Virus record (IMG/VR): IMGVR_UViG_3300025121_000056
Span: 1-63,479 of that record
Direction: 5' to 3' (one strand)
Origin: a virus
Lineage: Duplodnaviria; Caudoviricetes
DNA length: 63,479 nt
The notes below the pieces were generated by a model. It was not told the DNA's origin. It worked only from the letters and a program-made list of their open reading frames with translations, and did not search any database. The translations under genes and the position numbers were made by a program. This document shows, piece after piece, positions 4,813 to 46,707 of this stretch (positions are counted from its first letter, which is position 1; each line of letters starts with the position of its first letter).

Positions 4813-4867
4813 CAATTACGAAAGTCTAAGAGACGAATGAAATCAAATTTACATAGGAGAGAAGGCA

Positions 4868-5885: not shown

Positions 5886-7121
5886 ATGCCAGAACGAGAT
5901 TTTAACCAAATAATGGACGATCTGAAAGTTAGTGAAGACGAAAACATTGATAAAATCAGTGAAGTAGCGGATAACGCATCACCCGAAGAAGTAGAGGCAC
6001 TCAAAGAGTTATTTGAAGAAGGCGACAAAGCAGATTCATCAAGCACCGACGAAAAGGATAATGCTGATGATAAAACCGATTTAGAGCCGGAAAAGAAAAT
6101 AACCGATGAGGAAAAACCCAAAGATCAAGCGGAAGACGATAAGGAATTAGAGAAAGAGACAAAGGAAGAACCGGGAGAAGTTATTCCTCTCGATACTAAA
6201 CCTATCACAATCTCCGATGATTATATTTCCAAGGCAGATGAGAAAGACCGTAATATTTTGCAAGCTATTAAGGGAGAAATGTTCTCACCTAAAGGATTGC
6301 AGAATTACATTAATGCACAACGTAAAATTGGAGAACTCGGTACAAAACTTGGTGAGCAATCCAAACAAACAGAAAAAGAAATTCCGGCTAAAATTGTACC
6401 GGAGACATTTCCTAAACAACAATTCACAGAAGAAGTTGAAAAACTTAAAGAAGTTGAGATCCTCAACAGACTAAGAAAATCTTTTCCCGATTTACCCGAA
6501 GATTTACAAGAAGCCAAAGAATACATTAATTCATTACCACAGAGTGACTTTTATAGGTATATGAAAAAAGAAGATTCTATGCGCGATGAAGTAGAACAAG
6601 ACTTTAATAAAGCCGTTTATTATCAAGAGCATCAACCGGAAATCAATACTACTATTATCAAAAATGACATTGATAAAATTATAGCGGAATTAAAAGAAGA
6701 TGGTATTGAAGATCCCGCAAAGTTCGGTTTGGATTTAACCATTATAAAAGACGCTAATGGTAAAAGTAATAATGCTTTATTACAAGAGTTGATTACTACT
6801 GATGGTAAAACTATGGATAAAAGCCTTGTAACATTTGTCGGTAATGTGCCAATATTTAACGAAGGAGCAATCTATAATAAATTCTTTGCTATTAAGCGCG
6901 GAGTTATTAGAGACATCATTCGTAAAAAAACTTCCATAGATTCCAGGAAAGAAGCATTTAATGAATTAAAGAAACATGGCGAAGACGCGAATAATACTGC
7001 TTCAGTGGAAAAAAGTGGTGGAGTTACCGGCAACAAATACAAAGGGAAAGATTTAGATAAAGTTGATGATTTGAACCCTTCTGAAGTAGAAGAGTTGAAG
7101 AGGGAGATGGAAAAAGAATAA
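5886..7121 (+). CDS. Probable capsid scaffolding protein
   Basis: Very acidic N-terminus and coiled coils; 'YINAQRKIGE'; directly upstream of the major capsid gene. Confidence 0.7.
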   Translation: MPERDFNQIMDDLKVSEDENIDKISEVADNASPEEVEALKELFEEGDKADSSSTDEKDNADDKTDLEPEKKITDEEKPKDQAEDDKELEKETKEEPGEVIPLDTKPITISDDYISKADEKDRNILQAIKGEMFSPKGLQNYINAQRKIGELGTKLGEQSKQTEKEIPAKIVPETFPKQQFTEEVEKLKEVEILNRLRKSFPDLPEDLQEAKEYINSLPQSDFYRYMKKEDSMRDEVEQDFNKAVYYQEHQPEINTTIIKNDIDKIIAELKEDGIEDPAKFGLDLTIIKDANGKSNNALLQELITTDGKTMDKSLVTFVGNVPIFNEGAIYNKFFAIKRGVIRDIIRKKTSIDSRKEAFNELKKHGEDANNTASVEKSGGVTGNKYKGKDLDKVDDLNPSEVEELKREMEKE

Positions 7122-23300: not shown

Positions 23301-26300
23301 ATAGAAAAAAGTAAAGCGGACAAAGATTACTTTATAGAGCCCGATGAATTACAAAAAGGCAGATTCAAAGTAGGGCACAAAGTTAGTGGTGACGCTGAAG
23401 GATTAACTCTCGATCAATATAAAGATAAATACCAGAAAGACTTTGAGACACTTCACAAGAACAATGTTGATTTTGCCGTTTCTGAAGGGAAGAAGGTTTC
23501 CCCAAAGATATTGAAGGATTATCCAGACCTTGCCGAGAAGCCGACTTCACTTATAAGTGAACCAGAGAAAGAAACACCAGTAAATTATGCTGGGATTAAA
23601 AATTTTGAGAAAGAAGCAGTTACTAAACTTCAAGAGAACAGAAAAATACTCGACAAATTATTTGAGGAAAGAGATCAGAGAAGAAACCAAGAACTTTCTC
23701 CCAATGACAAACGAAGTGCTTTAAGGAATATAAATAGCTCTGTTTCTGAATTAAGAGCGAAGGGGATAAATGCAAGATACGAGAATGATAATCTATACAT
23801 TGATGATAAAAAGATTTATCCAATAACCACGAAGAAAGCCGAAAACTTAAACCAAGTTGTAATTGATAACAAAGAAGCAGAAACACCTTTTGAAAAACTA
23901 ACTCCAGAAGAACAAGACCGTCAAACATTTTTATCTGATGTAATTAGTCAAAAGAAATTCTTACCCGAAGAACTCAAGCGAATGTTGCCGGTTGGATTTG
24001 GACAAGAGAAAATTGATAACGCCGTTAAGGACATAAAAGAAGATGGCGGGAAAGAACAAAACCGAGACGCAAAGATTTATAGAGATTTTATAAAATCGGT
24101 AGATGACATTTTCACCAGAGATGGTTATATTACATTCACAGATGGAAGCAAGTTTACAAAAGAACAGTATGATAATGAGTTAGAAGATTATGTTTATCAG
24201 AGAGCAAAACAACAAACAGATTTTGAAGATGACACATTTGATTTTAGTTTACAAGACGCAATTAAGAACGAGGAAATAGATGAAACCACAGCAAGGGAAC
24301 TCTCCCTCGAACAGAATCCGGCAGAACGTGAAGAACTTGTTAAGAGTATTGAGAGCGAAGCGACAAGCGACAACGAAGTTAAACTCAATGAAGCAGTCCG
24401 AAAAGCAGACGAAGTAGTAAAACCGAAAAAACCTTCATTTCTAAAACCACCCAAAGGAAGTAACGCCGTAATAGTAAAGTTTAAGGACGGCAAACAATCC
24501 AAACTACCGATCAACGACTTATCTTTAATAGGAAATGATTACTCGAAAGTTGATAACATTTCTTTTGGTAGTGTAGATTTTAATAAATCCGGTGGATTGA
24601 AATGGGATTCGTTCAAAGAGATTAAGAATGTAAATCCGAACGACCAAATACTCAAACAAGATTTAGATCGCACCGAACTTCAGAGTTTACAAGACAGAAA
24701 GAGACACCTTGAATTAGTCCTTAGTGAAACGAAAGACAATGAAGTCATTAAAAAGGGACAAGTAGAATTAAAAGATATAAACAATAAACTTTCTAAGATT
24801 AGAACAAAAGAAAATCAGTTTGATATGTTTGGTGATAAGCAAGATCAAATGTCATTATTCCAGAAAGAACACACCCGCACCAGAAACGTATTTGAGAAGA
24901 TGAACGATGTTGAACAACAGAAGTTTTTACGCATAGTTGCTAATGGATTTTTAAGTGAGAACCCGGACATTAAGTTTGGCAACGTACCAAAGACTTCCGG
25001 CAGATTAGCTTCAGCAATAGCCAACATTACGCGGCAATCAATTTTATTTGATTCTCGAACTTCCGATATGTTGACTGCGATAGAAGAAATAAATCATATT
25101 GTTTTATCAAATCCCGACATGGTATCAGAGTGGAGAGCAAAAGCAATACTAAGAGAAAACGGATGGGATGGTAGAGGAGATTATAGAGAACCGAACAACA
25201 ACAAAACGCTTGAAGATGCTTATGAGAACTTCGCTGACAAAAATAAAGAATGGTATTCCAAGAACAAAGAAGCGACACCAAAAACACTAACAGAGAAATT
25301 TATTGTTTGGCTAAAGAACCTTTGGGCTAAACTTGCGGGATACTTACACAGCAAAGGATTTTACACACAAGCTGGATTCTTTGAGAACCTTTACACTGGT
25401 AAGCTAAAACAGATGGGGCTAAAGGAACAGACCGAGAGAATAAACGAGATAAGAGTTGAGAATGCACTTGCACAAAAAGTAGAACAAACAAGTTCACCAG
25501 AGTTTAAGGAATTTTTCGGGAAGTCTGAAGTGGTAGATGCAAAGAAAAATCCATTAATAGTTTATCATGGCACAACTGGAGATTTTAATACTTTTGAGAA
25601 AGGTGATGTAGGATTCCATTTTGGATCTTCTGATCAAGCAAATCAAAGAACAATGCCGATAGTTAAGAGTGGTAGAAAACCATTAGTGAGACACGAAGTA
25701 ATGAATGGTGTAAAGACTATTGCTCAAGTTACTTCTGAAGGTGCTAATATTATTGCTGCTTATATTCGTTTAGAAAATCCTTTACGAATAAGAGATAATG
25801 CTTTGACTTCACCGAAGGATTACGCGGGTGCAATTATTGAAGAAGCAAATAGAGGAAATTTTGACAATAAGGTAGCAAATTATATTTATGCTAATGTTGA
25901 GAGGATGCTTGGCTCGAATTATAGTTTGGGTTCTGTAAAGACTAAAGAAGCATTTGATTTTATCAGAGATACTTTGAAAGGAAAAGGCTATGATGGACTT
26001 ATTTACCAAAATGAATATGAGGATAAAGAAGTAAAAAGTGATAGTTATGTAGTGTTTGATGCAAACCAAATAAAGAGTGCAATAGGTAACTCCGGGGAAT
26101 TCAGCAAGAGTGATAATATCTTAAAACAGAAACTTGAAAAGATAAATCCGGAACTCACACAAACACTTATGCAATCTTTACCAGACGAAACAAATCCAAT
26201 GCTTCAGAAAGGATTAGAGATATTCAACTTAGGTAAAACAAAATTCACTGATTGGCAGAAAGCCATGAAAGAAGACTTTGGTAAACAGAACTACCAGAGA

Positions 26301-29252
26301 CTTTATTTAGACGTATTGAAAGCAAAACGATCTGACAAAGAATTATTATCAAGCGAAGTTAAGGAAGAAGAATCCAGACTTGAAAAAGGGACTGAAAGAT
26401 TAGAGAGTAAAATAGAAGACCCCGGATATTTAGAATACAAACGACAACGGACAAACATAAAAAATCAGATAAAAGAATTTAAGAGAGGTTGGGAAGCCGG
26501 CAAAAGAGATACCGAGCAAGAACTAACATTTTTGAAGAAACTCATTAGAGATTATGCACAGGAATATCTACCTAAGAATTTAATTAAATCTGAGATTACG
26601 CCTTTAATGACAAAATTAGCAGAAGCTAAGAAATTGGAAGATGTTGAGGAAGGATTTAACAGAATAGATAAAATAGTTCTTCACAACAATAAGAATTACT
26701 TACTTAAAAATATTTATGGTGCATTACAAACTTTCAGACCGGAGAAAGTAAAGGGTGTATTAAAGGGAAAACATTTAACGGCTCCGGAATATGACCAACT
26801 TTCAGACATCAGAAAAATAGTTTCTCTTAAACCAGACCAAGTAAATGAACTAACTACAAAATTATTTGAGAGGATAGAAACAGCCGGAGATGATTTTGAT
26901 GAAGCTGCTGAAGAATACCTTTACAGAATACAAACATTCTCAAACTTAAAAGAAAAATCAGTTGAAGAACTTTCTAAAGTGTTGGATGATTTAACTGAAA
27001 TAATTGCTACCGGGAAAACAAAACATCAACTAATACTTGAAGCTAAAAGAGAAAAACGAAAAGTATTGATAGATGAATTTGAAAAACTTATAACCGGCGG
27101 TAAAGGACTACTCAGCGAGGAAGAAGCAAGAGCCAAGGGATTAGATTTACAAAAGCACGAAAGTTTTATTAAAAAATTTGACCTTAATAACCAAAGTTTA
27201 GAGTGGTTATTTGATAATCTCAGTAAGTTTGATAAGGATTCTAAACCATTGGAGGGTGCATTAAATAAATATTTCATCCCTAAAGTACAGGAAAGTAGAA
27301 ATAATGAAAATGAAGGAACAACGAATTACTTTAAGGAAATCCACGATAAAGCCGAAGATGTCTTCGGAGTAAAGGGGCGCAAATTAGTGAGTCTCTTAAA
27401 CAAAAATACCGAGAGAGAAAAGACCGGAATATTTGTTAAAAAGGGCGAGAACAAGATCGAACTTGAATTAAGTCAAAACGAAGCATATAAAAAGTGGATG
27501 GAATGGCAAGATCCTTCACTAAAGCCAACATTAGAAAAGATGGGTTGGAATGAAGGAGTAATAAAACAAATTGAGAAGTGGCTCAAACCAGAAGTAAAGA
27601 AATGGGCTGAGTGGCAGATAAAAGAATTTTATCCAAAATATTATAAAACAGTAAATGATGTGTTTAGTAAGATGTTCTATGTGAATCTTCCCTTTAACGA
27701 ATATTATTCTCCGGTACAGAGAAGCGCGGAGGGTAAAGATAATTACGATGATCAACTATTGAGAAATAAAACTCAATATGCAAGTGTGATGAATGGGCAT
27801 TTAATGTCAAGAGTAAAAAACACCAGAGACTTAAAAATAATTGATGGTGATATTACATTAGCTAATCATTTGATAGTAATGGAACATTTTAAGAATTGGG
27901 CTGAGACAGTAAAAGAAATGCGTTCAGTTCTTCAAAGTGAAAAGATACAAAAAGCAATACTTCAATATCACGGCAAAACAGCACAGAGTATATTAAATGG
28001 ATTTATTAATGATTTAGCTAGAGGTGGAGAAGACAGGGCATTAGTTGTCAATTTCTTGGATAAGTTAAGAGGCGGATTTTCTAAAGCCGTATTAGGTGCA
28101 AATCCAGTAATTATGTTAAAACAATTTTCAAGTATGCCTGCCTTTGTTGGAGAAATACCAATTAGAGATTTTGCAAAAGGATTAACTTACTTTTTCTTAA
28201 ATCCAGGAAAAGCACTTGGGGAATTATCAGAAAGCAAAATGATGAAACACCGTTATCATCGAGGATGGGAAAGAGATGTTATTCAGGCATTAAAAAGATC
28301 AGTATCCAAGCAAATGGCGAACACAAAAAATTTCACAGATAATCTAATGATCTTCATTGAACTTGGAGATAAAGCAGCAAGTCATGTTGGCGGATATGGA
28401 GTTTACAGATACTATAAAGATAAATATTTAAGAGAAGGAAAATCACCAGAAGAAGCAAAAAGACAAGCCTTATTACAATTTGAATTGAGTGTAGGAAGGA
28501 CCCAACAAAAAGGGGATACTGAGGACTTATCGGCAATCCAGAGACTTGGTTCTTTCGGTAAATTATTCACAATGTTCCAAACACAACCAAATGCTTATTA
28601 CAGACAAATGAGTAATAATGTTAGGAATTTTTACCGCGGTAGAGGAAGAACAAACGCAGCCAAAAGGATATTTGTTTATCATTTTTTACTACCTTTTATT
28701 TTCCAATGGGTAGCGAGTGGACTCCCCGGACTACTAAGTAATTGGGATGATAAAGATAAAAAGCGGCAATTAAGAGCCTTGGCATTAGGTTCTTTTAATG
28801 GAATGTTGGCAATTGGAAATCTTATAGAAGATGGTATTGATTTTATAATAGGCGATATGAAGCAATATAATCCGCAAATGACACCAATTTTACAACCAAT
28901 AATTCAATTTGGTTATATGGCAAAAAATATTGCGAAGCTAATTGATGGCACAACCACCTTGAGCACAAATGAAGTGTTAAAGATCGTAGATGAAATAGTC
29001 TCAGTAGTAGGTAAAGCGAAGGGGATTCCTTATGATCCTATAAAGAGAACAATAAAAGGTGCAAAAAATATTTATGAGCAGGGTGGTGTAAAGTCTAGTG
29101 AAGATATATTAAAAACAATCGGATATAGCGATTATGCACTTGGCAACGATAAAGAAAAGGGTATAAAAAAATCAAATATTAACCAAAAACAATTATTCAA
29201 ACTCCCGAATTTTAGTAAAGAATTACAGGATAAATTAAAGATCAAGTTCTAA
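20340..29252 (+). CDS. Giant (2970 aa) ejection / polyvalent protein with ART-PolyVal-like domain
   Basis: ~25490-26110 encodes 'FKEFFGKSEVVD..NPLIVYHGT...GFHFG...YIRLENPL...GYDGLIY.N...YVVFDANQIKSA.GN.GEF'; helical C-terminus with 'LFTMFQTQPNAY'. Confidence 0.75.
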   Translation: MAKEKIIFDLGQIADRIREKYNTEWKTKEEEVKPSNGNDLSGIAQRLREKQNPSVLNQENIVKGNIPTNGNGFDPEGSGYDYKTAEKYGITPDSSDHYPSREPNTGLILKGKNHPTFNKTLEGEEKAGYVVYKGSDGRYYSKPKEQPKEDILSKVQSAYKPSIQERNLNVEGIGETFPEQTVTAKPSKESLADYQLSKVSQSDLLPELEIKKKELESTPKTSPNYNKKVNEFNSLLATFNDPKVRERELLDIANSKIPQPEHLAPQEYDESGNFKGYYKWVEPFIKAKNNALSMKDHPLVKAVNELSDYFTKKRFGQETKSSDLVRGITDAASAALSTSLGIYPAVAGFELASSFLREPLINASVKRLGLDRKKSEFLIDTISPFVFGAKVGLASLAGKDLEFLVDKTIPEDWSEEDKQRAKSLANQVGFWGTIYGSHRFQQNVDIYNRLGALPTKGQWGAINKYRNEPETLNRLIKGWTGGSYKVENPELKKEKQPIIQGLIEDIKPQDLNKTVRGTETFAEQTAEPIKSSEIPKEELADRDELFNIVRGSNDEATARKIAVGLTNKQAKFIITSGREGEEVNQEVIDGILKPKVSEAQDVQIGSTEKILQRQPEETGISRGERGGMERGEQGSEITGTQQEIPQGTNETKITKGDEEVSEFENIFDIRLSETTGEKIKFIYDMNKEIVDNPQENEPDEVESAQKIVKEIDDYANKTPEEKLTEPLPSEQKPTEKLPQQPQKSEVAQLPVSTKKVYPAVRDNQGKIYTGVTHPKAIEKMLGKSEDEITEKEYFNTSDNVDFGFVNEKGKFLTQDETRKYLGRNEIETMDAKDLADENLIKEPNPVPEVKAVEPQKITDRIDKLNGVEKTYWDGKNLKLTVYYDEKIPKDVIQVRVAKELSDNALTDAVPKITFLSTEKGTFAEEPTKSEAPTPVVSEKVVETKVEKQPYELSKEEFVDKTAQEYYEKDKGEKTKYIKRGLTEKSAQIEKSKADKDYFIEPDELQKGRFKVGHKVSGDAEGLTLDQYKDKYQKDFETLHKNNVDFAVSEGKKVSPKILKDYPDLAEKPTSLISEPEKETPVNYAGIKNFEKEAVTKLQENRKILDKLFEERDQRRNQELSPNDKRSALRNINSSVSELRAKGINARYENDNLYIDDKKIYPITTKKAENLNQVVIDNKEAETPFEKLTPEEQDRQTFLSDVISQKKFLPEELKRMLPVGFGQEKIDNAVKDIKEDGGKEQNRDAKIYRDFIKSVDDIFTRDGYITFTDGSKFTKEQYDNELEDYVYQRAKQQTDFEDDTFDFSLQDAIKNEEIDETTARELSLEQNPAEREELVKSIESEATSDNEVKLNEAVRKADEVVKPKKPSFLKPPKGSNAVIVKFKDGKQSKLPINDLSLIGNDYSKVDNISFGSVDFNKSGGLKWDSFKEIKNVNPNDQILKQDLDRTELQSLQDRKRHLELVLSETKDNEVIKKGQVELKDINNKLSKIRTKENQFDMFGDKQDQMSLFQKEHTRTRNVFEKMNDVEQQKFLRIVANGFLSENPDIKFGNVPKTSGRLASAIANITRQSILFDSRTSDMLTAIEEINHIVLSNPDMVSEWRAKAILRENGWDGRGDYREPNNNKTLEDAYENFADKNKEWYSKNKEATPKTLTEKFIVWLKNLWAKLAGYLHSKGFYTQAGFFENLYTGKLKQMGLKEQTERINEIRVENALAQKVEQTSSPEFKEFFGKSEVVDAKKNPLIVYHGTTGDFNTFEKGDVGFHFGSSDQANQRTMPIVKSGRKPLVRHEVMNGVKTIAQVTSEGANIIAAYIRLENPLRIRDNALTSPKDYAGAIIEEANRGNFDNKVANYIYANVERMLGSNYSLGSVKTKEAFDFIRDTLKGKGYDGLIYQNEYEDKEVKSDSYVVFDANQIKSAIGNSGEFSKSDNILKQKLEKINPELTQTLMQSLPDETNPMLQKGLEIFNLGKTKFTDWQKAMKEDFGKQNYQRLYLDVLKAKRSDKELLSSEVKEEESRLEKGTERLESKIEDPGYLEYKRQRTNIKNQIKEFKRGWEAGKRDTEQELTFLKKLIRDYAQEYLPKNLIKSEITPLMTKLAEAKKLEDVEEGFNRIDKIVLHNNKNYLLKNIYGALQTFRPEKVKGVLKGKHLTAPEYDQLSDIRKIVSLKPDQVNELTTKLFERIETAGDDFDEAAEEYLYRIQTFSNLKEKSVEELSKVLDDLTEIIATGKTKHQLILEAKREKRKVLIDEFEKLITGGKGLLSEEEARAKGLDLQKHESFIKKFDLNNQSLEWLFDNLSKFDKDSKPLEGALNKYFIPKVQESRNNENEGTTNYFKEIHDKAEDVFGVKGRKLVSLLNKNTEREKTGIFVKKGENKIELELSQNEAYKKWMEWQDPSLKPTLEKMGWNEGVIKQIEKWLKPEVKKWAEWQIKEFYPKYYKTVNDVFSKMFYVNLPFNEYYSPVQRSAEGKDNYDDQLLRNKTQYASVMNGHLMSRVKNTRDLKIIDGDITLANHLIVMEHFKNWAETVKEMRSVLQSEKIQKAILQYHGKTAQSILNGFINDLARGGEDRALVVNFLDKLRGGFSKAVLGANPVIMLKQFSSMPAFVGEIPIRDFAKGLTYFFLNPGKALGELSESKMMKHRYHRGWERDVIQALKRSVSKQMANTKNFTDNLMIFIELGDKAASHVGGYGVYRYYKDKYLREGKSPEEAKRQALLQFELSVGRTQQKGDTEDLSAIQRLGSFGKLFTMFQTQPNAYYRQMSNNVRNFYRGRGRTNAAKRIFVYHFLLPFIFQWVASGLPGLLSNWDDKDKKRQLRALALGSFNGMLAIGNLIEDGIDFIIGDMKQYNPQMTPILQPIIQFGYMAKNIAKLIDGTTTLSTNEVLKIVDEIVSVVGKAKGIPYDPIKRTIKGAKNIYEQGGVKSSEDILKTIGYSDYALGNDKEKGIKKSNINQKQLFKLPNFSKELQDKLKIKF

Positions 29253-38518: not shown

Positions 38519-38938
38519 ATGAAACTTTTTTGCTCAAATACTAAACTCGGATTAATTCCATTATATCCAGACGATCTTGATGAGAAGAAAAAACTCAAGA
38601 TGGGCGAAATCTATTCATGTGAAATTAAATTGGCAAGGAATTATGAGTTTCACAAGAAGTTTTTCGCATTATGTAAAATGGGCTTTGAGAACTCAAAAGA
38701 GAAATTCATTAAAGCTCCGAATCTTGACATATACAGAAAATATGTAATTATCCGTTCTGGATTTGTTGATTTAGTACAAACCCCAAGTGGGATTATTCCT
38801 TTTCCTCAATCTATTTCATTCGAGAATATGGACGAAACAAAATTTCAAGAAGTTTATGGGGGAGCTTTAGATTTTATTATGGAAGATATCGAGGCGAGTA
38901 AAGAAGATATAGAAAACGAGTTGGGAGATTTCTTTTAA
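38519..38938 (+). CDS. DUF1367 / NinB-like protein
   Basis: 'RNYEFHKKFFAL', 'PQSISFENMDETKFQEVY'. Confidence 0.75.
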   Translation: MKLFCSNTKLGLIPLYPDDLDEKKKLKMGEIYSCEIKLARNYEFHKKFFALCKMGFENSKEKFIKAPNLDIYRKYVIIRSGFVDLVQTPSGIIPFPQSISFENMDETKFQEVYGGALDFIMEDIEASKEDIENELGDFF

Positions 38939-38979
38939 TTGACAGTGTAATGGATACAACCTTAGAGAAACTAAGTAAA

Positions 38980-39110
38980 AAATAACATATATGCAACTTA
39001 CCCGATTATGGTAGTTGCTTAGAAACTAAAATTAGAGGATAAATTTTAATGGATGAAAAAATAAAATTGAACGACCAAGATAATAATTCGGGTAGAGTTG
39101 CGAGTTATTA
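38980..39110 (-). repeat. attC-like site (most distal)
   Basis: + strand ATAAC(38982) ATATAT GCAACT TACCCGA ... TCGGGTA [G] AGTTGC GA GTTAT(39104). Confidence 0.8.
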
Positions 39111-39264
39111 TACGAGCCCGCTCGCTCTAAGAAATGAGTACAAAGCCGAAAGTGGATACGATATTCAACACGTTATTGACAACGAAGATGAATCTTGTAT
39201 TGGTGTACTTATTCACTATATCAAAAATCTCGAAGGCAAACTGGTAAGAAAAGCGGGTAAGTAA
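39049..39264 (+). CDS. Cassette ORF, hypothetical; starts inside the attC loop
   Basis: GAGG RBS and ATG lie within 38980-39110. Confidence 0.55.
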   Translation: MDEKIKLNDQDNNSGRVASYYTSPLALRNEYKAESGYDIQHVIDNEDESCIGVLIHYIKNLEGKLVRKAGK

Positions 39265-39313
39265 CTCACAATTCCTTGCCGGAGCCTGTTATTATAGCTC
39301 GCTCCGCTCGCTA

Positions 39314-39442
39314 TAATAACAATTTGGCAGTTGTGCCGCAAAAAACGAGAGAGAAAATTTAGTATGAAGAAAATATTTAATAACATAAAAAACCCAAACT
39401 TCTTAACCGATATTTTTTGTCGGTACGAAGTGCAAGTTATAT
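39314..39442 (-). repeat. attC-like site
   Basis: ATAAC AATTTG GCAGTT GTGCCG CAAAAAA ... TTTTTTG [T] CGGTAC [G] AAGTGC AA GTTAT. Confidence 0.8.
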
Positions 39443-39458
39443 TTTTTTTACGGTAATT

Positions 39459-39938
39459 ATGGGACTATCATCTCATCAAAACACCGTAGGGAAAAACCAA
39501 GAATGGCTAACGCCCAGATATATATTAGAACCGCTTGGAAAGTTTGATTTAGATCCGTGCGCACCAAAACGCAGACCGTGGGGAATAGCTAATAAGCATT
39601 TTACTGTGGATGGATTAGAACGTAAATGGTTTGGAAGGGTTTGGTTAAATCCACCGTTTGATAGATACACAATCGGTTTATGGTTAAAAAAAATGGCTGA
39701 ACATAATAACGGTATTGCATTGATCGCAGCACGAACCGAAACAGAAAACTTTTACAACTATGTGTGGGATGTAGCAACAGGAGTTTTGTTCATTAAGAAC
39801 AGACCCCACTTTTGTTATGTAAATGGGACGATGGCAAAATTTAATTCTGGAGCGCCAATATGCTTAGTAGCTTATGGTGAGATAAACTTAAAGATCTTAA
39901 TTGAAAGTGGCTTAGGAGTGACAGTAAAAAAAATATAA
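39459..39938 (+). CDS. Cassette-borne phage DNA N6-adenine methyltransferase
   Basis: 'EWLTP', 'FDLDPCA', 'VWLNPPF', 'ARTET..F'; stop TAA lies in the next TAAC box. Confidence 0.85.
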   Translation: MGLSSHQNTVGKNQEWLTPRYILEPLGKFDLDPCAPKRRPWGIANKHFTVDGLERKWFGRVWLNPPFDRYTIGLWLKKMAEHNNGIALIAARTETENFYNYVWDVATGVLFIKNRPHFCYVNGTMAKFNSGAPICLVAYGEINLKILIESGLGVTVKKI

Positions 39939-40195
39939 CGTAGTGGCAACTTACACGTTTGCGGCTCAATAAAATAAACTGGAGAATAGACCAATGATAC
40001 AAAAACTATTAGAAGAATTTGCAAAACCATTTTACCGATTGAACATTGGCGGTATAGAAATAATACCCGATTCTAAGAAGGAATTCACTGGAGTAAGCCA
40101 TCGAGAATTATTCAGTTTCATTAATGACCTTTTGAATGTGCGTGCATGTAAAATAAAAAAGAAGCAAGCAAATCGTATACAGTTGCAAGTTATGC
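39933..40195 (-). repeat. attC-like site with long coding loop
   Basis: ATAAC GTAGTG GCAACT TACACG TTTGC ... GCAAA [T] CGTATA [C] AGTTGC AA GTTAT. Confidence 0.75.
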
Positions 40196-40374
40196 AGAAA
40201 ATTGCGGAGTTGATAGAATACCACAAACAAGAAGCATCAGAACCATATTTAACATTAAAGAGCATATCAAAATTAAAGAAGTTTGAGTTAAAGGTATTGA
40301 ATAACTACAAAAGGAAAATGAAGAAGAAACATCAAGACTGGATTAAAATATTAGAGAGCAATTTTACGGCATAA
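39994..40374 (+). CDS. Cassette ORF, hypothetical; about half is encoded within the attC
   Basis: GGAG RBS in the loop; reads through the arm as ANRIQLQV; TAA in TAAC. Confidence 0.6.
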   Translation: MIQKLLEEFAKPFYRLNIGGIEIIPDSKKEFTGVSHRELFSFINDLLNVRACKIKKKQANRIQLQVMQKIAELIEYHKQEASEPYLTLKSISKLKKFELKVLNNYKRKMKKKHQDWIKILESNFTA

Positions 40375-40469
40375 CGCCGAAGCTAAATGGCGCGAGTGAT
40401 AAAATAGAAATAACTAACTAAACCAAAAACTGCCACGTAACGAGCGTCCATTTGAGCGACTTGTTATGT
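40369..40469 (-). repeat. attC site with canonical geometry
   Basis: Minus strand: R'' ACATAAC, spacer AAGTC, L'' GCT[C]AAAT, GG[A]CGC ... GCGCC, L' ATTTAGC, spacer TTCGGC, R' GTTATGC. Confidence 0.9.
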
Positions 40470-40490
40470 GGCAAAACAGAGCGAGGATTT

Positions 40491-40877
40491 ATGAAAACGG
40501 ATTTGAAGGTAAGCGCGGATATAAACGCAGGGATGGATCAACTCGGAAAATTTTTGAACGATTTATCGGTAAAACTTGGAATAGCCGGAAAAGAATTGTT
40601 GCCATACTACGCAAAGAGAGTATTCTTGCGCGGACTACAAAGAATAATTTTCGGGGCATTGGTAATGATATTGCCATATCTATTATTTTTTGTAAATCCA
40701 TTTCCAGAAACGTATAAAGATTATTGGATGTTGGCAAGAATACTGTTTTGCATAACGACAACGTGGAAAGGGCTTGATTGGATTACTGATTGGATTGAAG
40801 AAATTGGCGCACCGGAATCGGTTGCGATACAATGGTTACTGGATGAGTTCAGAAATTTTATTAAAGCGGTAAGATAA
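40491..40877 (+). CDS. Cassette ORF, membrane protein
   Basis: GAGG RBS, two hydrophobic helices. Confidence 0.65.
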   Translation: MKTDLKVSADINAGMDQLGKFLNDLSVKLGIAGKELLPYYAKRVFLRGLQRIIFGALVMILPYLLFFVNPFPETYKDYWMLARILFCITTTWKGLDWITDWIEEIGAPESVAIQWLLDEFRNFIKAVR

Positions 40878-40899
40878 AAAGCGCGGTGGCGTTTTGTCC

Positions 40900-41029
40900 A
40901 CATAACGGAGTTGCAATTGTGCCGATTGCGGACACTGTAAATAAAATTTTATGAACGAAATAACTAACATATTAAACAACAAAAAATGCCGATCAAGAAA
41001 GCAATTCGGACACGAATTGCGAGTTATAT
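40900..41029 (-). repeat. attC-like site
   Basis: ATAAC GGAGTT GCAATT GTG CCG ATTGC ... GCAAT [T] CGG [A] CAC [G] AATTGC GA GTTAT. Confidence 0.8.
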
Positions 41030-41054
41030 TTTTTGGCGGCGGGAGATTGTAAAA

Positions 41055-41273
41055 ATGACAAACAAAGAAATTAAAGAAAACATTTTAGAACAAGCAGAAG
41101 AGCTTGAAAAACTTTTAACCGACAGAATTAGTGAGCTATATAATTTAAGCGGAGCTGCACAAGGACAGTTCTTTCAAGGTGCAAGACACACTTTTTGTTA
41201 TTACAGAGATTATACTTGGAAAATACGGGACTTGGCGAGACAGATTGCAGAAGTAAAGCCAGCCGCCAAATAA
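41055..41273 (+). CDS. Cassette ORF, hypothetical
   Basis: GGGAG RBS before ATG 41055; ends AAK-stop in the cassette end repeat. Confidence 0.6.
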   Translation: MTNKEIKENILEQAEELEKLLTDRISELYNLSGAAQGQFFQGARHTFCYYRDYTWKIRDLARQIAEVKPAAK

Positions 41274-41406
41274 ATATAACGGTTCTTTGCCTAAACCGAT
41301 TGCGGACTTAGAAAAACAATGATAAATAATTTATTAACTAAAAATAGCCGACCAAACTCAAATCAAGAATTGCGAAAGCAATTCGGATTTGAGGCAATAG
41401 TTATAT
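41274..41406 (-). repeat. attC-like site
   Basis: ATAAC GGTTCT TTGCCT AAA CCG ATTGC ... GCAAT [T] CGG [A] TTT [G] AGGCAA TA GTTAT. Confidence 0.8.
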
Positions 41407-41438
41407 TTTTTGGCGGCGGACATTAAAGGAGAAACAGA

Positions 41439-41582
41439 ATGGAAACATTAGCAGTCCTTAACGGAATATTTTTTATAGTAAATATTACAATAAACGCTAT
41501 GCAAGGAAATTGGGCGGCAACAGCAGGATGGTTTTGTGCATTGTGTTGGGTATTTAATTGGTATATAAAAGCCGCCAAATAA
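41439..41582 (+). CDS. Cassette ORF, 47-aa membrane peptide (not in the ORF track)
   Basis: AAGGAG RBS; METLAVLNGIFFIVNITINAMQGNWAATAGWFCALCWVFNWYIKAAK. Confidence 0.65.
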   Translation: METLAVLNGIFFIVNITINAMQGNWAATAGWFCALCWVFNWYIKAAK

Positions 41583-41776
41583 ATATAACGGAGTGGCGGC
41601 TAAACTGCTGCGGAAATAAAAGAAAGGAAATAATAAGATGGACGTTGAGAAAATTAAAAAGTGGATTGCGAACATAGAGCATTTTGAACCCGATTTAAGT
41701 TTAGGGACGTGTAGGACATTAGGTGACATTAAAAAAGAACTTGACAAGAGCAGTCAGTTTGAGCCGCAAGTTAAGG
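41583..41776 (-). repeat. attC-like site with coding loop
   Basis: ATAAC GGAGTG GCGGCT AAACTG CTGC ... GCAG [T] CAGTTT [G] AGCCGC AA GTTAA. Confidence 0.8.
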
Positions 41777-41946
41777 TGCAAATTGCGGAAATTACAGAGG
41801 ATTATATAGAAATTGCTTTTAATAAAATTGTTACAGTAACAGATAGTAAGGATTTTTTTGAAAGAGATGGCTTCGCAGAATGCAACAAAGTTCAATTACA
41901 CGCAATTATTATGCAAATATGGTTACATAGCAATTTGTCAACATAA
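41638..41946 (+). CDS. Cassette ORF, hypothetical; starts inside the attC
   Basis: AAGGA RBS in the loop; reads the arm as SSQFEPQV; TAA in TAAC. Confidence 0.6.
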   Translation: MDVEKIKKWIANIEHFEPDLSLGTCRTLGDIKKELDKSSQFEPQVKVQIAEITEDYIEIAFNKIVTVTDSKDFFERDGFAECNKVQLHAIIMQIWLHSNLST

Positions 41947-42068
41947 CAGATCAGCGATAAGACGCAAAAGAGTAAGAAGGAAAATTTAATTAATGAACAA
42001 ATTTAATAACATAATAACTACAAAAATTGGAACGAATACTTTTGTCGTTCTTGATTGCGTAGTTAGTT
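41941..42068 (-). repeat. attC-like site
   Basis: ATAAC AGATCA GCGAT AAGA CG CAAAAG ... CTTTTG [T] CG [T] TCTT [G] ATTGC GTA GTTAG. Confidence 0.8.
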
Positions 42069-42098
42069 TGCTTTGTGGCGGACACAGGAGATAATAAA

Positions 42099-42497
42099 TT
42101 GGAAGAGAAAATAATATTAAAAGGGATAGTAGCAACGGGTTATATGATGGACAACTTTAGCGGAATAGACTTAATACAAGAGGACGGCTATAAAGTTGAC
42201 TTGATAACCAGATTGAAAGAGTTTGTATATAATTATGGTAAAAAAATAACTGTTAGATATTGGGTTGCAGAGAAAAGAGAAGAAGATGAGAATGTAAAAA
42301 AGAATACGTTAAAGAAAATTATGGGAGTATTAGAGGCGGAATACGAAACAAGTTATTATGAGTATAGCGAATATACAAGTGTAACTGATTACGATACAGT
42401 ATTTAACATTGACAAACACAACCTATATGCGGAATTGATGGGAGTGCAAGGGAAATATTTGATATTAGAAGTGGAGAAAGCCACAAAGTCAAACTAA
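42099..42497 (+). CDS. Cassette ORF, hypothetical phage protein
   Basis: AGGAG RBS before TTG 42099; 'YSEYT...HNLYAEL...GKYLILEV'; TAA in TAAC. Confidence 0.65.
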   Translation: MEEKIILKGIVATGYMMDNFSGIDLIQEDGYKVDLITRLKEFVYNYGKKITVRYWVAEKREEDENVKKNTLKKIMGVLEAEYETSYYEYSEYTSVTDYDTVFNIDKHNLYAELMGVQGKYLILEVEKATKSN

Positions 42498-42617
42498 CGG
42501 CGTGGTTTTTCACTTGCCGCATCGGAAGATAAATGAATGAAAATATTAAACAAAATACTAAACATTAAATTAACAATCGCCTCGCTATTCGCGGTCAAGT
42601 GCAAAAACTTGTTATGC
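42492..42617 (-). repeat. attC-like site (attI-proximal)
   Basis: CTAAC GGCGTG GTTTTT CACTTG CCGC ... GCGG [T] CAAGTG [C] AAAAAC TT GTTAT. Confidence 0.8.
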
Positions 42618-42644
42618 TTTTGCGGGCGGAGAAGGAGAAGATAA

Positions 42645-42866
42645 ATGGAAGTCATAACAGGAAAAATTTATAAGTGTTCTTTTTGTGGACATCGAACCCT
42701 AACAAAAAAAGGTATGGAATTACACGAGGGAACATATTGCAAAAAAAACAAGAATTCAATAGCATTAATGGATATAGAAGATTATGGAGAATCACAAGAA
42801 ATCAGACGTGGTGATTATTCCTCAGACGAACTAGCGAGAAATAATGCTTGGCAAATGGGTATTTAG
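42645..42866 (+). CDS. Cassette ORF, small zinc-finger protein
   Basis: 'YKCSFCG...MELHE..YCKKN'; AAGGAG RBS. Confidence 0.7.
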   Translation: MEVITGKIYKCSFCGHRTLTKKGMELHEGTYCKKNKNSIALMDIEDYGESQEIRRGDYSSDELARNNAWQMGI

Positions 42867-42884
42867 AACGCAAGCCCGCAATAA

Positions 42885-42950
42885 GCATAACTATCTCTTA
42901 TATAGAATTTATTCTTGATAATATTTATGAACAAACATAAACGGGAATTA
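42885..42950 (-). other. attI-like site (crossover G/TT at 42891 on the minus strand)
   Basis: The last TAAC box has no attC hairpin partner and lies 60 bp before the intI-like start. Confidence 0.6.
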
Positions 42951-42951
42951 T

Positions 42952-43098
42952 ATGTTAGAAGATGATTTCAGATCGGTTTGCAGATTAAACCACTTTGCTA
43001 CAAAGACAGAAAATACTTACTGGAGTTTTTGTTTGCAATTTATTCTATTCCATAATAAGAAACATCCGGCGGAACTTGGTAAAAAAATTGGTTATTAA
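42952..43098 (+). pseudogene. intI: Integron integrase N-terminal fragment (48 aa)
   Basis: MLEDDFRSVCRLNHFATKTENTYWSFCLQFILFHNKKHPAELGKKIGY* matches the IntI N-terminal pattern (LDQ.R..IR..HYS.RTE..Y..W...FI.FH..RHP..LG). Confidence 0.85.
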
Positions 43099-43242
43099 TC
43101 ACAATATTCTTATTTTTAGTTAGCTTATGAAACGTATCTTAACAATATTTTTATTATTTGCCCCAAAAGATAAGGAATCTTGCCCTAAAGGTACGATTCA
43201 TAAGCACTTATTTTGCGGGGCATTTTTTATTGGAATGTTATA

Positions 43243-44145
43243 ATGAAAATATGTCGAATTTGTTTAATCGAGAAAAAAGAAGACGAGTTTTATCCGAGGA
43301 TGGGAGTTTGTAAAATTTGCCACAATAAAAGATGCAGAGATTGGGCAATCAAAAATCCCAAAAGAATATTGAGCATTAATCTAAGAGCAAAAAATAAGGC
43401 TAATAAATTACGGTATGATTGGTTATCAAAACATAAACGAAGACATCGGGGTATATACGTAACAAATGGGAAATTCCAAGCAACTTATCAACATAAAAGG
43501 AAACGATATTATTGTGGTCTTTTTGATACTATGGAACAAGCAATAAGGGCATATAGAAAAAAAGAGAAAGAAATTACCGGCAAAAATAGAATTCCTCTAA
43601 AACCAACTTTTAATTACAAAAATAAAACCGTGAAAATTCCGTTGTGCAATTATGGAAGAGCAAATTCTAAACATTATGGTAAATTCACAACGATTATTGA
43701 TTTAGGCGATTATAAAAAAATTAAAGATTATTCTCTATCAATTAATGGTGGTTATGTTGTCTTATCTATAAACGGATCGTTGGTCAGATTGCATAACTTT
43801 TTATTTGATAGCGAAAATACAGATCATAGGAATGGGAATAAACTAGACAACAGAAAATCTAATTTTAGAAAAGCAACTCATACCCAGAACGCAAGAAACA
43901 GTAAAAAACCTGTCCATAATGGACTTTATCATAAGAACACAAGTCCATATAAAGGTGTAACAAAAAGAAACGATTATATGTATAAGTATAGAACAAGAAT
44001 AAGGGTTGATGGAAGATTAATAAGTTTGGGCACTTATGATAACGAAATAGTCGCAGCAAAAATTTACGATGCAGCGGCAAGAAAATATTTCGGTGAATTT
44101 GCTTGTTTGAATTTTCCTCAGAGACAAGAAAGGGGGGCAATTTAA
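43243..44145 (+). CDS. HNH endonuclease with AP2 DNA-binding domain(s)
   Basis: 'DHRNGNKLDNRKSNFRKAT..QN', 'SPYKGV...LGTYDNEIVAAKIYDAAARKYFGEFACLNF'; N-terminal CxxC pairs. Confidence 0.9.
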   Translation: MKICRICLIEKKEDEFYPRMGVCKICHNKRCRDWAIKNPKRILSINLRAKNKANKLRYDWLSKHKRRHRGIYVTNGKFQATYQHKRKRYYCGLFDTMEQAIRAYRKKEKEITGKNRIPLKPTFNYKNKTVKIPLCNYGRANSKHYGKFTTIIDLGDYKKIKDYSLSINGGYVVLSINGSLVRLHNFLFDSENTDHRNGNKLDNRKSNFRKATHTQNARNSKKPVHNGLYHKNTSPYKGVTKRNDYMYKYRTRIRVDGRLISLGTYDNEIVAAKIYDAAARKYFGEFACLNFPQRQERGAI

Positions 44146-44937: not shown

Positions 44938-46707
44938 ATGAAACTTAATATTTCAAAAGATTTTAGTTTACCGATTGATGCAGTTACACAAACCTTTTCA
45001 ATATTAGCTAAACGAAGGGTGGGGAAAACATATACCGCTTCAGTTATGGCCGAGGAAATGGTAAAAGCGAAACTTCCATTTGTTGTTTTAGATCCTACTG
45101 GTGCATGGTGGGGATTACGTTCCGGTAAAGATGGTCGGTCCGAAGGTGGTTTGCCTGTTTATGTCATTGGTGGCGAACATGGTATTCCTTTGGAACCGAC
45201 TGCCGGGAAAGTAATAGCCGAACAAGTAGCAACTTATCCTTCTTTTTATGTAATAGATATATCTCAATTTGAAAGTAATGCAGCACAAGATAGATTTGCA
45301 ACAGATTTTGCTGAAAGACTTTATCGAATAAAAGAAAAAAATCGTGAAGTAATGCACCTTTTTATTGACGAAGCTGATGCTTTTGCACCACAAAGACCTA
45401 TGCCCGGGCAACAAAGAATGTTGGGTGCGTTTGAAGTGTTGGTAAGAAGGGGTGGAATACGTGGTATCGGTATTACATTAATTACTCAACGTCCAGCAGT
45501 TATAAATAAAAACGTACTTACTCAAACAGAGTGTTTAATCGTTCTACAAACTACTTCTCCGCAAGATCAAGATGCTATTGAAGAATGGGTAAAACGGAAT
45601 GGTAGTGATGAGGAAAGAAAAACTTTAATGTCTTCTCTCGCTTCATTAAAAAGAAGTGAGGCGTGGATTTATTCACCTGCTTGGTTAGAAGTATTCAAAC
45701 GAATCAACATTAGAGAACGTGATACATTTAATTCTTCCGCAACTCCGAAAGCCGGGGAAAAACAAATTAATAATCCGTCCCTTAAACAAGTTGATATAGA
45801 AAAATTAAGTCAGCAGATCAAAGCAACTATTGAGAAAACAAAAGAGAACGATCCAGAGATACTGAAAAGGAAAATCCGGGAACTTGAAAGGAATCAGAGT
45901 ATTAAAAATGTTGTTAGTCCTGATATGCTCTTAGTCAATAATCTGAAGGAAACAATAAAAGGACAGGATAAAGAGATCATCCAATTACGGAAACAGTTGT
46001 TACAAACGAATGAAACTATTAAACTCACATTCCAAAAGACTTTGAAAACAGTAAAATCTTATGTGGATAAAATAGATTTTTCAGAAATAGATATTCCTAT
46101 AATTGTAGTAAACACACAAAATGAATTTTTCAAAATGGCTACAACTCCAAACACTGATAATTCTGTTATAGGGAAGATAATAATTAAGGAAAAATTTAAT
46201 CAATCTCCTTGTAAAACAACAATCCGTGATGGAGAAATAAAACTTAAAGACGGGGCTAAAAGAATGTTGGCTGCTGCTGTAAAGTGGAATCCTCTTGGAA
46301 TAACTGGTTCTCAAATGAAAACACAAGCCGGGATAAAGCACGTTAATACTTTTAGCACTTATAAAACTCAATTAATTAGCGTGGGGTTGTTGTTTCTAAA
46401 TAGTGGTAGCGGTTTATTCTACCCTACTGAAGAAGGGATAAAATATTCTGGCGATACTCCGAGTGCAGAAACAACAGAAGAAGTATTGGCGTTATGGTTG
46501 CCTCACTTCAAAGATGGTGCAAGAAGAATGTTGAGGTTTTTAGTAACTCTAGACGGTAAGGCAATCACACACGAATCTTTGATGCAAGAAGCGCGCATCG
46601 AACATCCGAATACCTATAGTACATATAAGACACAATTAAAGTCTGCTCATCTTGTGGTAGAAAATGACGGTATGATTTCAGCAAATAAGGAAACATTATT
46701 CTTATGA
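44938..46707 (+). CDS. HerA/DUF87-like P-loop ATPase with duplicated C-terminal wHTH-like module
   Basis: Walker A AKRRVGKT, 'VLDPTG', Walker B LFIDEAD, 'ITQRP'; twice 'KDGA.RML...T(F/Y)STYKTQL'. Confidence 0.85.
   Translation: MKLNISKDFSLPIDAVTQTFSILAKRRVGKTYTASVMAEEMVKAKLPFVVLDPTGAWWGLRSGKDGRSEGGLPVYVIGGEHGIPLEPTAGKVIAEQVATYPSFYVIDISQFESNAAQDRFATDFAERLYRIKEKNREVMHLFIDEADAFAPQRPMPGQQRMLGAFEVLVRRGGIRGIGITLITQRPAVINKNVLTQTECLIVLQTTSPQDQDAIEEWVKRNGSDEERKTLMSSLASLKRSEAWIYSPAWLEVFKRINIRERDTFNSSATPKAGEKQINNPSLKQVDIEKLSQQIKATIEKTKENDPEILKRKIRELERNQSIKNVVSPDMLLVNNLKETIKGQDKEIIQLRKQLLQTNETIKLTFQKTLKTVKSYVDKIDFSEIDIPIIVVNTQNEFFKMATTPNTDNSVIGKIIIKEKFNQSPCKTTIRDGEIKLKDGAKRMLAAAVKWNPLGITGSQMKTQAGIKHVNTFSTYKTQLISVGLLFLNSGSGLFYPTEEGIKYSGDTPSAETTEEVLALWLPHFKDGARRMLRFLVTLDGKAITHESLMQEARIEHPNTYSTYKTQLKSAHLVVENDGMISANKETLFL

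Follow-up and report, generated by a model that had tools for sequence, protein, structure and literature searches.

An integron cassette is defined as a promoterless open reading frame (ORF) followed by its attC recombination site, and the strand selectivity of the integrase is thought to keep this ORF in the sense of the platform promoter. What kind of element, then, is an array in which an attC-type hairpin stands in front of its gene or overlaps it, with a start codon in the hairpin loop? Such an array occupies positions 38980 to 43098 of a virus of the Caudoviricetes, IMG/VR record IMGVR_UViG_3300025121_000056, a single linear virus record of 63,479 bases (completeness estimate, 76%) that was analyzed over its full length and is called the window here. 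We give a probability of about 55% to the reading that this region is a decayed phage integron made up of nine cassettes coded on the attC bottom strand, in which translation starts in the attC loops and short leader ORFs hand over to the cargo genes.

Organization and strand of the attC-type hairpins

The window contains phage head, terminase, and tail-fiber genes, and its + strand carries every long ORF; the DNA runs containing window sequence are groundwater and soil metagenomes, mainly groundwater. Between positions 38980 and 42617, nine imperfect palindromes (S1 to S9) are arranged in tandem at gene borders. They begin with (A)TAAC in the left box at the 5' side, end with GTTA(T) in the right box at the 3' side, range in length from 101 to 263 nucleotides (nt), and are the strongest AAC/GTT-type pairs of the window. 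A generic energy scan for AAC...GTT hairpins gave 120 window matches at a loose threshold, and because this background is too high to define sites alone, the sites were curated by hand. Together with hairpins on related contigs (described below and labeled L plus a number), they form a curated family of 34 sites on 8 contigs, with 31 nonredundant sites. The AAC/GTT inverted repeat is found at all nine window sites, and TAAC and GTTA are each found at 30 of the 31 nonredundant family sites, counts that are partly circular because the sites were chosen by that feature.

According to Nivina et al. (2016, PMC5027507), a folded attC bottom strand has AAC in one arm and extrahelical bases opposite to it; these are usually a G and a conserved T, set apart by a 6-bp stem. 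On the + strand of the window, AAC lies in the 5' arm, and T and G bulges separated by 6 bp are seen in the 3' arm at S7, S1, and S9 and in many relatives. This arm reads GCAG-T-CAGTTT-G-AGCCGC in S7 and is similar in S1, S9, and others. Across the 34 family sites, 83 unpaired bases beyond the first internal loop are in the 3' arm and 30 are in the 5' arm, the excess being on the 3' side at 31 sites, on the 5' side at 1 site, and equal at 2 sites. Because these bulges stand opposite AAC on the + strand, the coding strand of the window corresponds to the attC bottom strand. The class 1 integron of plasmid R100, which has intI1 on the + strand and, left of it, aadA1 on the minus strand, served as a control. 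Read on the + strand, with intI1 pointing away from the array, attC_aadA1 likewise shows the T and G bulges 6 nt apart in the 3' arm, and the 3'-arm consensus of the present family, TC...TtGA...gCtaGTTAT, has the same register relative to GTT as attC_aadA1. The hairpins had been called attC sites in an earlier sequence-only reading of this DNA; an attC-type assignment is supported by the AAC/GTT arms, the bulges, and the R100 register, and on these features we file them as a putative divergent attC family.

An integrase stub and a lone core site

The right end of the array is marked by a lone left box (..GCATAAC; positions 42872 to 42891, with the box at 42885 to 42891, + strand). No convincing hairpin lies behind it, its flank is complementary to the tail of S9, and it would represent the junction of the first cassette with attI. 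Starting 61 nt past this box, a stub of an integron integrase gene (42952 to 43098, + strand) points away from the array. The stub matches Phage_int_SAM_4 with 35.7 bits (cutoff, 27), its top NCBIfam models are those of the integron integrases, TIGR02249 and PRK15417, and it is 40% identical to residues 18 to 57 of IntI1. In addition, a 192-amino-acid (aa) environmental protein that is 74% identical to the stub scores 188.8 bits with TIGR02249 over model positions 4 to 191, far above the Xer models. No intact intI was found in the window, where the gene amounts to 48 codons, and a tblastn search for an integrase on 14 related loci found none. The geometry of the region is classical, with intI divergent from the cassette top strand and the array on the 5' side of intI. 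The relative layout of intI, array, and bulge side is equal to that of R100; the ORFs here are on the integrase strand, not on the opposite strand.

An HNH homing-type endonuclease gene (43243 to 44145, + strand; phrog_99) directly follows the integrase stub at a distance of 145 nt, and an 18-nt inverted repeat (43123 to 43140 and 43188 to 43205) lies between the two.

Proposed polarity and limits of the cassettes

If the + strand is the attC bottom strand, the crossover would fall at AA|C of each left box. The cassettes would then extend over positions 38986 to 39319, 39320 to 39938, 39939 to 40374, 40375 to 40905, 40906 to 41279, 41280 to 41588, 41589 to 41946, 41947 to 42497, and 42498 to 42890, and each of them would hold its own hairpin and then its own ORF, which is the reverse of textbook cassettes. 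With these limits, the TAA stop codon is the TAA of the left box, and thus the last three cassette bases, in five of the nine cassettes. The inverted polarity would also place the genes that start in a loop wholly within one cassette; ordinary polarity would split them. That the hairpin travels with each cassette, as had been proposed from the sequence, is supported by the bulge strand and the R100 register: since the coding strand is the attC bottom strand and the boundary lies in the left box, the hairpin would move together with the downstream gene.

The two ends of a cassette are also related to each other. Just past each right box, the sequence complements that at the far end of its own cassette (for instance, GTTATATTTTTTGGCGGC with GCCGCCAAATAAATATAAC), and as a consequence of this tail complementarity, three unrelated proteins end in AAK. 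Homology between S8 and its copy in L023 starts just past the left AAC, and homology among the copies of S6 and of S1 starts past the 6-nt spacer.

Start codons in the hairpin loops

At eight of the nine window sites, an ATG in the loop opens a frame that crosses the right arm, S4 being the site that lacks it. Our recomputation agrees in this with the sequence-only reading, and it reproduced the division of these frames into three that are the cargo gene itself and five that are short leaders. The cargo ORF of S1 (hairpin, 38980 to 39110; ORF, 39049 to 39264; 71 aa, no family match) has its ATG in the loop and its first 20 codons encoded by the hairpin, so that the 3' arm contributes N-terminal residues. 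The hairpin of S3 (39933 to 40195) has a long loop holding the ATG of a 126-aa ORF (39994 to 40374), and that of S7 (41583 to 41776) holds the ATG of a 102-aa ORF (41638 to 41946); both ORFs read through the 3' arm. All features of the array described in this section are on the + strand.

In the five leader-bearing cassettes, the leader runs from the loop ATG through the 3' arm and stops 2, 2, 12, 4, and 0 nt before the cargo start at S2, S5, S6, S8, and S9, respectively. The leader of S2 (hairpin, 39314 to 39442; leader, 39364 to 39456, 30 codons) ends before the ATG at 39459 of a DNA N6-adenine methyltransferase (Dam) gene (39459 to 39938; PF05869, phrog_111), which has no Shine-Dalgarno (SD) motif upstream and whose TAA stop codon is the left-box TAA of S3. 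The leader of S5 (hairpin, 40900 to 41029; leader, 40951 to 41052, 33 codons) precedes a 72-aa cargo ORF (41055 to 41273) whose C terminus, ...PAAK, lies inside the terminal repeat. In S6 (hairpin, 41274 to 41406; leader, 41319 to 41426, 35 codons), the cargo ORF (41439 to 41582) has 47 aa. The hairpin of S8 (41941 to 42068) has an 85% identical copy in L023; its leader (41993 to 42094, 33 codons, with AAGGA 11 nt upstream) is followed by a 132-aa cargo ORF (42099 to 42497; phrog_20281) that starts with TTG rather than ATG. In S9 (hairpin, 42492 to 42617; leader, 42537 to 42644, 35 codons), the TAA of the leader abuts the cargo ATG at 42645 in the same frame, and the cargo ORF (42645 to 42866; phrog_18748) has 73 aa. 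The hairpin without a loop ATG, S4 (40369 to 40469), precedes a 128-aa ORF (40491 to 40877) that has its own SD (GAGG) and a weak match to a membrane-protein PHROG.

The GTT core is read as a codon by six of these eight frames, those of S2, S3, S5, S6, S7, and S8, whereas those of S1 and S9 do not read it. The motif RKQFG.E..VIFFGGG is common to the leaders of S5 and S6, and this sharing tracks the nucleotide identity of the two 3' arms and tails, with the differences between the two copies falling at arm positions. The possibility that leaders are functional micropeptides was dropped, as their similarity follows the arm nucleotides and there is no sign of amino acid conservation.

Several further observations concern these hairpins. 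The leader and cargo of S9 share one frame that is split by a single TAA (42537 to 42866), and those of S6 share a frame that is split by a TAA plus four codons (41319 to 41582); read-through of either stop would yield a cargo protein with an N-terminal extension. A perfect 12-bp inverted repeat (TGTTATTATAGC and GCTATAATAACA) at positions 39287 to 39321 overlaps the left box of S2 and repeats the tail sequence of S1 (direct repeat at 39118 and 39304); it resembles either the complementarity between tail and end of cassette S1 or a remnant core pair. The inner end of the left arm, 18 to 19 nt past TAACG, carries a conserved TGCGG motif in many sites that otherwise differ (S3, S5, S6, S7, and sites of L005 and L023); this motif may be a family-specific binding or structural element.

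Loop starts and leaders compared with chance

A leader is present at five of the six window sites whose cargo begins after the arm. In dinucleotide shuffles of the whole region (n = 5,000), the mean was 0.64 of six sites and 1 shuffle reached five; in shuffles of the loops alone (n = 5,000), none reached five. Leaders are therefore far more frequent than in shuffled controls, with the reservation that the window sites are not independent trials because the copies are related repeats.

The family of homologous sites extends this result. A loop start with an open frame through the 3' arm is present at 29 of the 34 sites, namely, 8 of 9 in the window, 7 of 8 in L023, 2 of 2 in L005, 6 of 8 in L085, 2 of 3 in L129, 1 of 1 in L087, 2 of 2 in L117, and 1 of 1 in L128. 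About 20 of these 29 ORFs are the cargo itself, with the SD in the loop, and the remainder are leaders of 30 to 37 codons. Counting as a leader an ATG-initiated ORF whose stop precedes the cargo start by no more than 15 nt or falls up to 8 nt past it, 7 of the 12 nonredundant sites with post-arm cargo have one; the mean of loop shuffles was 1.57, and none of 3,000 shuffles reached 7. GTT is read in frame by 20 of the 29 through-frames, which corresponds to a binomial P value of about 1e-4 at p = 1/3. For nonredundant sites the count is 17 of 26, with P = 0.08 if p = 0.5, a value considered because TAA or TAG in some boxes closes one frame. It is the placement of the translation start in the attC loop, with the 3' arm read as codons across the family, that we take as the more robust statement.

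Three hairpins of a distinct terminal type, none with a + strand gene behind it, were excluded from the 34 sites (6947 to 7064 in L023; 612 to 731 in L103 and 2590 to 2638 in L087, both on the reverse complement). Their loop contains a short GC stem and then a T-rich, terminator-like stretch, with no ATG; in L023, this hairpin closes the array on the right and is followed by a minus-strand gene.

Related contigs and reuse of the hairpin module

In order to find relatives, strings and patterns taken from the hairpins were searched. A 20-base tail string led to two further viral contigs, L005 and L006. Among 65 matches of the tail pattern in species genomes, blastn showed L023 alone to be related. 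The pattern also gave 50 matches in metagenome contigs, of which 20 were matched by blastn, 12 as related loci (L097 among them being the same contig as L006) and 8 through short tail-only stretches. The arm-motif pattern recovered L005 and L006 again, beside nine coding matches (L007 to L015) that proved to be unrelated and were discarded. A blastn search of positions 38900 to 43300 against phage records gave zero matches. As for flanking anchors, the ATPase at 44938 to 46707 led to a single distant GC-rich contig (L004) that does not have the array, and the DUF1367 protein recovered nothing.

The related contigs have arrays of the same kind, likewise on the coding strand, and in L005, as in the window, a lone left box closes the array at its right end. 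Nearly unchanged copies of the S6 hairpin and leader are present in the window, L005, L006/L087, L101, L103, L110, L128, and L129, where they precede at least six different genes; the six downstream protein starts that were compared all differ. In these copies, the leader stop either overlaps the cargo ATG or precedes it by 1 to 12 nt. The junction GGCGGCGGGAGATTGTAA(A/G)ATG is common to S5, L005, L101, and L128. The SD of post-arm cargo genes lies inside a conserved tail motif, (G)GCGG(C)GGGAGA, which is followed by 7 to 9 nt and the ATG (for instance, 41036 to 41054 and 42624 to 42644); since this motif is common to several site types and contigs, the hairpin module brings the start region along.

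The hairpin module can also bring along part of the protein. The S1 hairpin is 95.7% identical in L085, and both copies share the in-loop ATG and 20 codons, giving the common N terminus MDEKIKL(N/T)DQDNNSG(R/T)VASY. Past the right box the two copies part: the window reads on into the 71-aa protein, and L085 reads on into an N6_N4 DNA methylase that lacks a nearby start of its own and in which the Pfam domain begins at residue 45. The arm-encoded motif S(G/A)(R/T)V(A/V)SY is common to four different proteins. Methylases among the family cargo are Dam in the window, N6_N4 in L085, and C5 in L023; methylases are noted in phage cassettes by Qi et al. (2023, PMC9892861) as well.

Variation was compared on contigs of four other runs (X6, X7, X9, and X10), using the covered stretches only. 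A contig of run X9 follows gene 39994 as far as the left box of S4 (40376) and then has a different hairpin. In contigs of X7, X9, and X10, a different gene end is joined up to the left box of S7 (41581), and contigs of X9 and X10 keep the arms of S7 with a replaced loop and diverge past the right box (41774). A contig of X6 has another left box and spacer joined up to the S1 arm (38993). The array is thus a mosaic in nature, and its breakpoints lie at boxes and arm borders. An X6 joint from 41280 to 41596 would delete just the S6 hairpin and its gene; its short side has 20 letters, with unknown letters in between, and it gives a weak hint of cassette loss.

L023 itself is a 7.2-kb low-coverage contig binned in a metagenome-assembled genome of Candidatus Paceibacterota. 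This binning, which is weak evidence for a phage contig, and the groundwater runs hint at a host from the candidate phyla radiation. Inside its AT-rich array, L023 has two copies of a GC-rich element of about 135 nt (4810 to 4943 and 6826 to 6950), which contain a GGTTCGA stretch and end in ..CGTCGAAC, the left box of the next hairpin. Rfam at an E value of 0.01 or below gave no match on three related loci, including this element.

The leaders as a putative ribosome relay

It had been proposed from the sequence that a ribosome relay keeps the operon expressed across the hairpins. The loop starts on which this proposal was built stand, being far commoner than in shuffles; no evidence was found that a relay is needed to keep the operon expressed, since most cargo start regions are predicted to be unpaired. 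The leaders have the classical layout of translational coupling, and this layout is kept across different junctions. In predicted RNA folds, the start region of Dam (S2) is the most occluded, with a mean unpaired probability of 0.29 that rises to 0.83 when the 3' arm is held open, a rise to which the design contributes, since the scored window includes part of the stretch under constraint. A leader relay is plausible, and the case for it is strongest for the Dam gene, which has no SD. Translation of upstream cassettes is reported in PMC11511950 to have acted via mRNA stability. We consider the chances roughly even that the leaders are translated and raise cargo expression. It would be equally plausible that their benefit lies in protecting a 120-nt structured spacer in the mRNA against decay or polarity.

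The mechanism that we propose would run as follows. The region would be a decayed integron of a groundwater phage, with nine cassettes, a lone core on the attI side, and a 48-codon intI stub. On the + strand, each cassette would extend from the C of the left AAC through the hairpin and the ORF to a TAA, the stop codon forming its last three bases. In the polycistronic phage mRNA, the hairpin would stand at the 5' end of its own gene; ribosomes may therefore start in the unpaired apical loop, and elongating ribosomes would pass through the 3' arm. In three cassettes, the loop ORF would be the cargo, with an N terminus partly encoded by the arm; in the five others with a loop start, it would be a short leader ending 0 to 12 nt from the cargo. 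Ribosomes on the leader would open the 3' arm and the tail and hand over to the cargo start by termination-reinitiation, and this hand-over would matter most for the SD-less Dam gene.

Alternative explanations

Several observations weigh against the reading of a decayed, bottom-strand-coded integron with leaders, and part of them would fit leaders that are by-products with no role in expression. The ancestral state would then be a cargo ORF starting in the loop; a new SD-bearing gene would have been joined behind the tail, the old N-terminal frame would have been left as a truncated open frame, and recent common descent, together with structural constraint on the arm, would have preserved leader frames. 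SD-bearing cargo is indeed the commoner state among the loop-start ORFs of the family, and ATG leaders are absent or broken at 5 of the 12 post-arm sites (S4, site c of L023, sites 3 and 5 of L085, and site 3 of L129), among which site c has a homologous leader that stops prematurely after 10 codons and site 3 of L085 has TTG where ATG is expected. The leaders of S2, S5, S6, and S9 have no SD motif, the AAGGA of S8 is at a long spacing, and the leaders lie 40 to 100 nt downstream of the previous stop, across the structured arm. SD-less leaders are, at the same time, unlike the in-loop cargo starts, all of which bear an SD, which speaks against an origin as former cargo starts. On the side of the cargo, eight of the nine genes have an SD of their own, those of post-arm genes other than Dam being strong and just outside the hairpin, and the start regions are predicted to be mostly unpaired (0.52 to 0.82 at five of six sites). 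Leader similarity tracks arm nucleotide identity, and the few differences between the S6 copies are mostly nonsynonymous; these copies give no independent test because they are nearly identical. What by-products would not lead one to expect is the excess of leaders over the family shuffles, frames that stay open over 30 to 37 codons of AT-rich sequence at different site types, leader stops that adjoin the cargo start in differing junction contexts, and a leader stop abutting the SD-less Dam gene. With these points on both sides, we hold a by-product origin to be unlikely, though a serious competitor.

Other adverse observations concern the sites themselves. The extended attC core consensus is RYYYAAC/GTTRRRY and the usual unpaired central spacer has 5 to 6 bases per arm according to PMC5027507; here, RYYYAAC is found at only 2 and GTTRRRY at only 3 of the 31 nonredundant sites, the family consensus being ATAAC/GTTAT, and the central spacer has about 6 nt after AAC and about 2 nt before GTT, an automatic parse giving no sharp separation of the spacer. 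Homology between copies breaks not only at the left box but also at the right box (S1) or past the tail (S6 and S8), and copies disagree in the 6-nt spacer adjoining the left AAC, so that breakpoints alone do not fix the crossover site. One way to accommodate the right-box breakpoints would be to take the + strand as the attC top strand, with each ORF before its attC as in ordinary cassettes; the loop of the upstream cassette would then give a start region, an N terminus, or a coupling ORF to a start-less cassette past a G|TT crossover, resembling ORF-11 of attI1. The homology of S1 between the window and L085 ends at the right-box GTTAT, after which the two different proteins continue in frame, and the X9/X10 divergence after 41774 falls just past the S7 right box; stop codons in the left box are known from many ordinary cassettes, and the frequent reading of GTT as a codon would suit a standard joining frame. 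The extrahelical bases opposite AAC on the + strand, however, define the bottom strand in the same register as the R100 control, and the side and strand of the integrase stub are expected only if the top strand is the minus strand of the window. Top-strand coding would also make most genes straddle cassette boundaries, and it does not agree with arrays that end at the right with a lone left box rather than a full hairpin (window and L005) or with a contig of X9, which keeps the end of gene 39994 and the left box before a different hairpin; we judge it improbable. The rarity of the classical consensus, the exchange of modules at the spacer, the right box, the tail, and the arm-loop borders, and the failure to find an intact integrase on the 14 related loci would even be compatible with hairpins that are not integron sites at all, being phage-specific recombination or regulatory stem-loops like the PeSLs, which are described as driving modular shuffling in hyperplastic regions of phages (PMC2839356, PMC4122927); the integrase stub would then be a coincidence. 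We hold this reading to be highly improbable in view of the G/T bulges, the 6-bp spacing, and the register equal to that of attC_aadA1, and of a stub in the classical position whose longer, 74% identical relative is an integron integrase by TIGR02249. In addition, a sigma-70-type scan found no promoter enrichment (37 promoter-like sites versus 35.4 ± 6.1 in shuffles) and no promoter-like site recurrent in the loops, and attC clusters recombined by IntI1 are documented in phages (PMC9892861).

Other features of the window

A tRNA gene lies at positions 742 to 815 (Rfam, 50.1 bits) and was the only match of the whole window at Rfam gathering thresholds, the hairpins being unmatched. Positions 20340 to 29252 form one ORF of 2,970 aa.

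Discussion

Clusters of attC sites lacking an integrase (CALINs) are known from phages: 10,705 phage genomes were reported to contain 17 of them, with sites that IntI1 recombines (Qi et al. 2023, PMC9892861). The array described here resembles them in its tandem arrangement of short ORFs and imperfect palindromes with AAC/GTT cores, G/T bulges 6 bp apart, and a variable loop, as well as in being phage borne and carrying orphan DNA methyltransferase cassettes. An integrase remnant in the classical position is a further point in common with known integrons. Unlike in these known systems, all ORFs are on the attC bottom strand, and the attC is 5' of the ORF or overlaps it instead of being 3'; the ATAAC/GTTAT core, the spacer of about 6 by 2 nt, and the integrase cut to 48 codons also differ from the usual case. 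This comparison covers the report of Qi et al. (PMC9892861) outside its supplementary tables, in which similar arrays may be listed.

Short ORFs within integron recombination sites have precedents. Class 1 integrons contain ORF-11, ORF-17, and ORF-18 in attI1, and a short ORF inside attC, proposed to relieve the stem-loop through termination-reinitiation, has already been published and is credited to Jacquier et al. in a review (PMC8876359). The leaders share with ORF-11-type coupling ORFs their being short, nonfunctional ORFs within a recombination site with the stop beside the cargo start, and in both cases translation of the ORF is proposed to hold the stem-loop open and to deliver ribosomes to the start codon that follows. 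ORF-11 has a canonical SD, GGAG, 8 bp upstream, and its own start region was shown to be necessary (PMC8876359), whereas four of the five leaders here have no SD as a start region of their own. Another difference is that the ORF here, known from its sequence, would be in the same cassette as the gene that follows and is often the N terminus of the cargo.

Cassettes in reverse orientation are found in sedentary chromosomal integrons, where toxin-antitoxin cassettes with their own promoter are described (PMC13108822). As in the present array, their ORFs do not run in the direction that the integron promoter serves. They are, however, a minority with promoters of their own, whereas here nine of nine cassettes are reversed, run in the direction of phage transcription, and have starts in attC loops, S4 apart. 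The PeSL cassettes of T4-type phages (PMC2839356, PMC4122927) likewise combine repeated intergenic stem-loops with small variable genes, and gene content differs between close relatives at such elements; in contrast to them, the present array shows no promoter enrichment and has attC-specific bulges, an adjoining integrase stub, and coding overlap. A full-text literature search, with supplementary tables outside its scope, found no whole arrays on the attC bottom strand with loop starts, which is not proof of absence. Phage attC clusters and translation-aiding short ORFs in attC are thus already known, and what appears to be new is the array coded on the bottom strand with starts in the attC loop.

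Opposite polarity holds here for a whole array and, across 8 contigs, for a family that numbers at least 34 sites, and start codons stand in the attC loop. We tentatively propose, at slightly less than even odds, that groundwater phages share a cassette pool of inverted polarity, in which the attC hairpin would combine the roles of 5' untranslated region, start region, and N-terminal coding sequence, the stop codon being supplied by the TAA of the core. Such cassettes would be expressed by phage transcription toward the integrase side, and the hairpin would be reused before many genes, including antirestriction methylases. The array is also a natural system in which to ask whether translation through an attC arm governs the expression of the gene that follows, an effect that to our knowledge has been argued so far only for class 1 resistance cassettes. 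If this proposal is true, attC sites can belong to coding sequences and start regions, unrelated proteins can share attC-encoded N termini, and phages may maintain a cassette pool of their own that includes orphan methyltransferases; the array would then represent a phage-adapted form of the integron that standard cassette definitions have overlooked.

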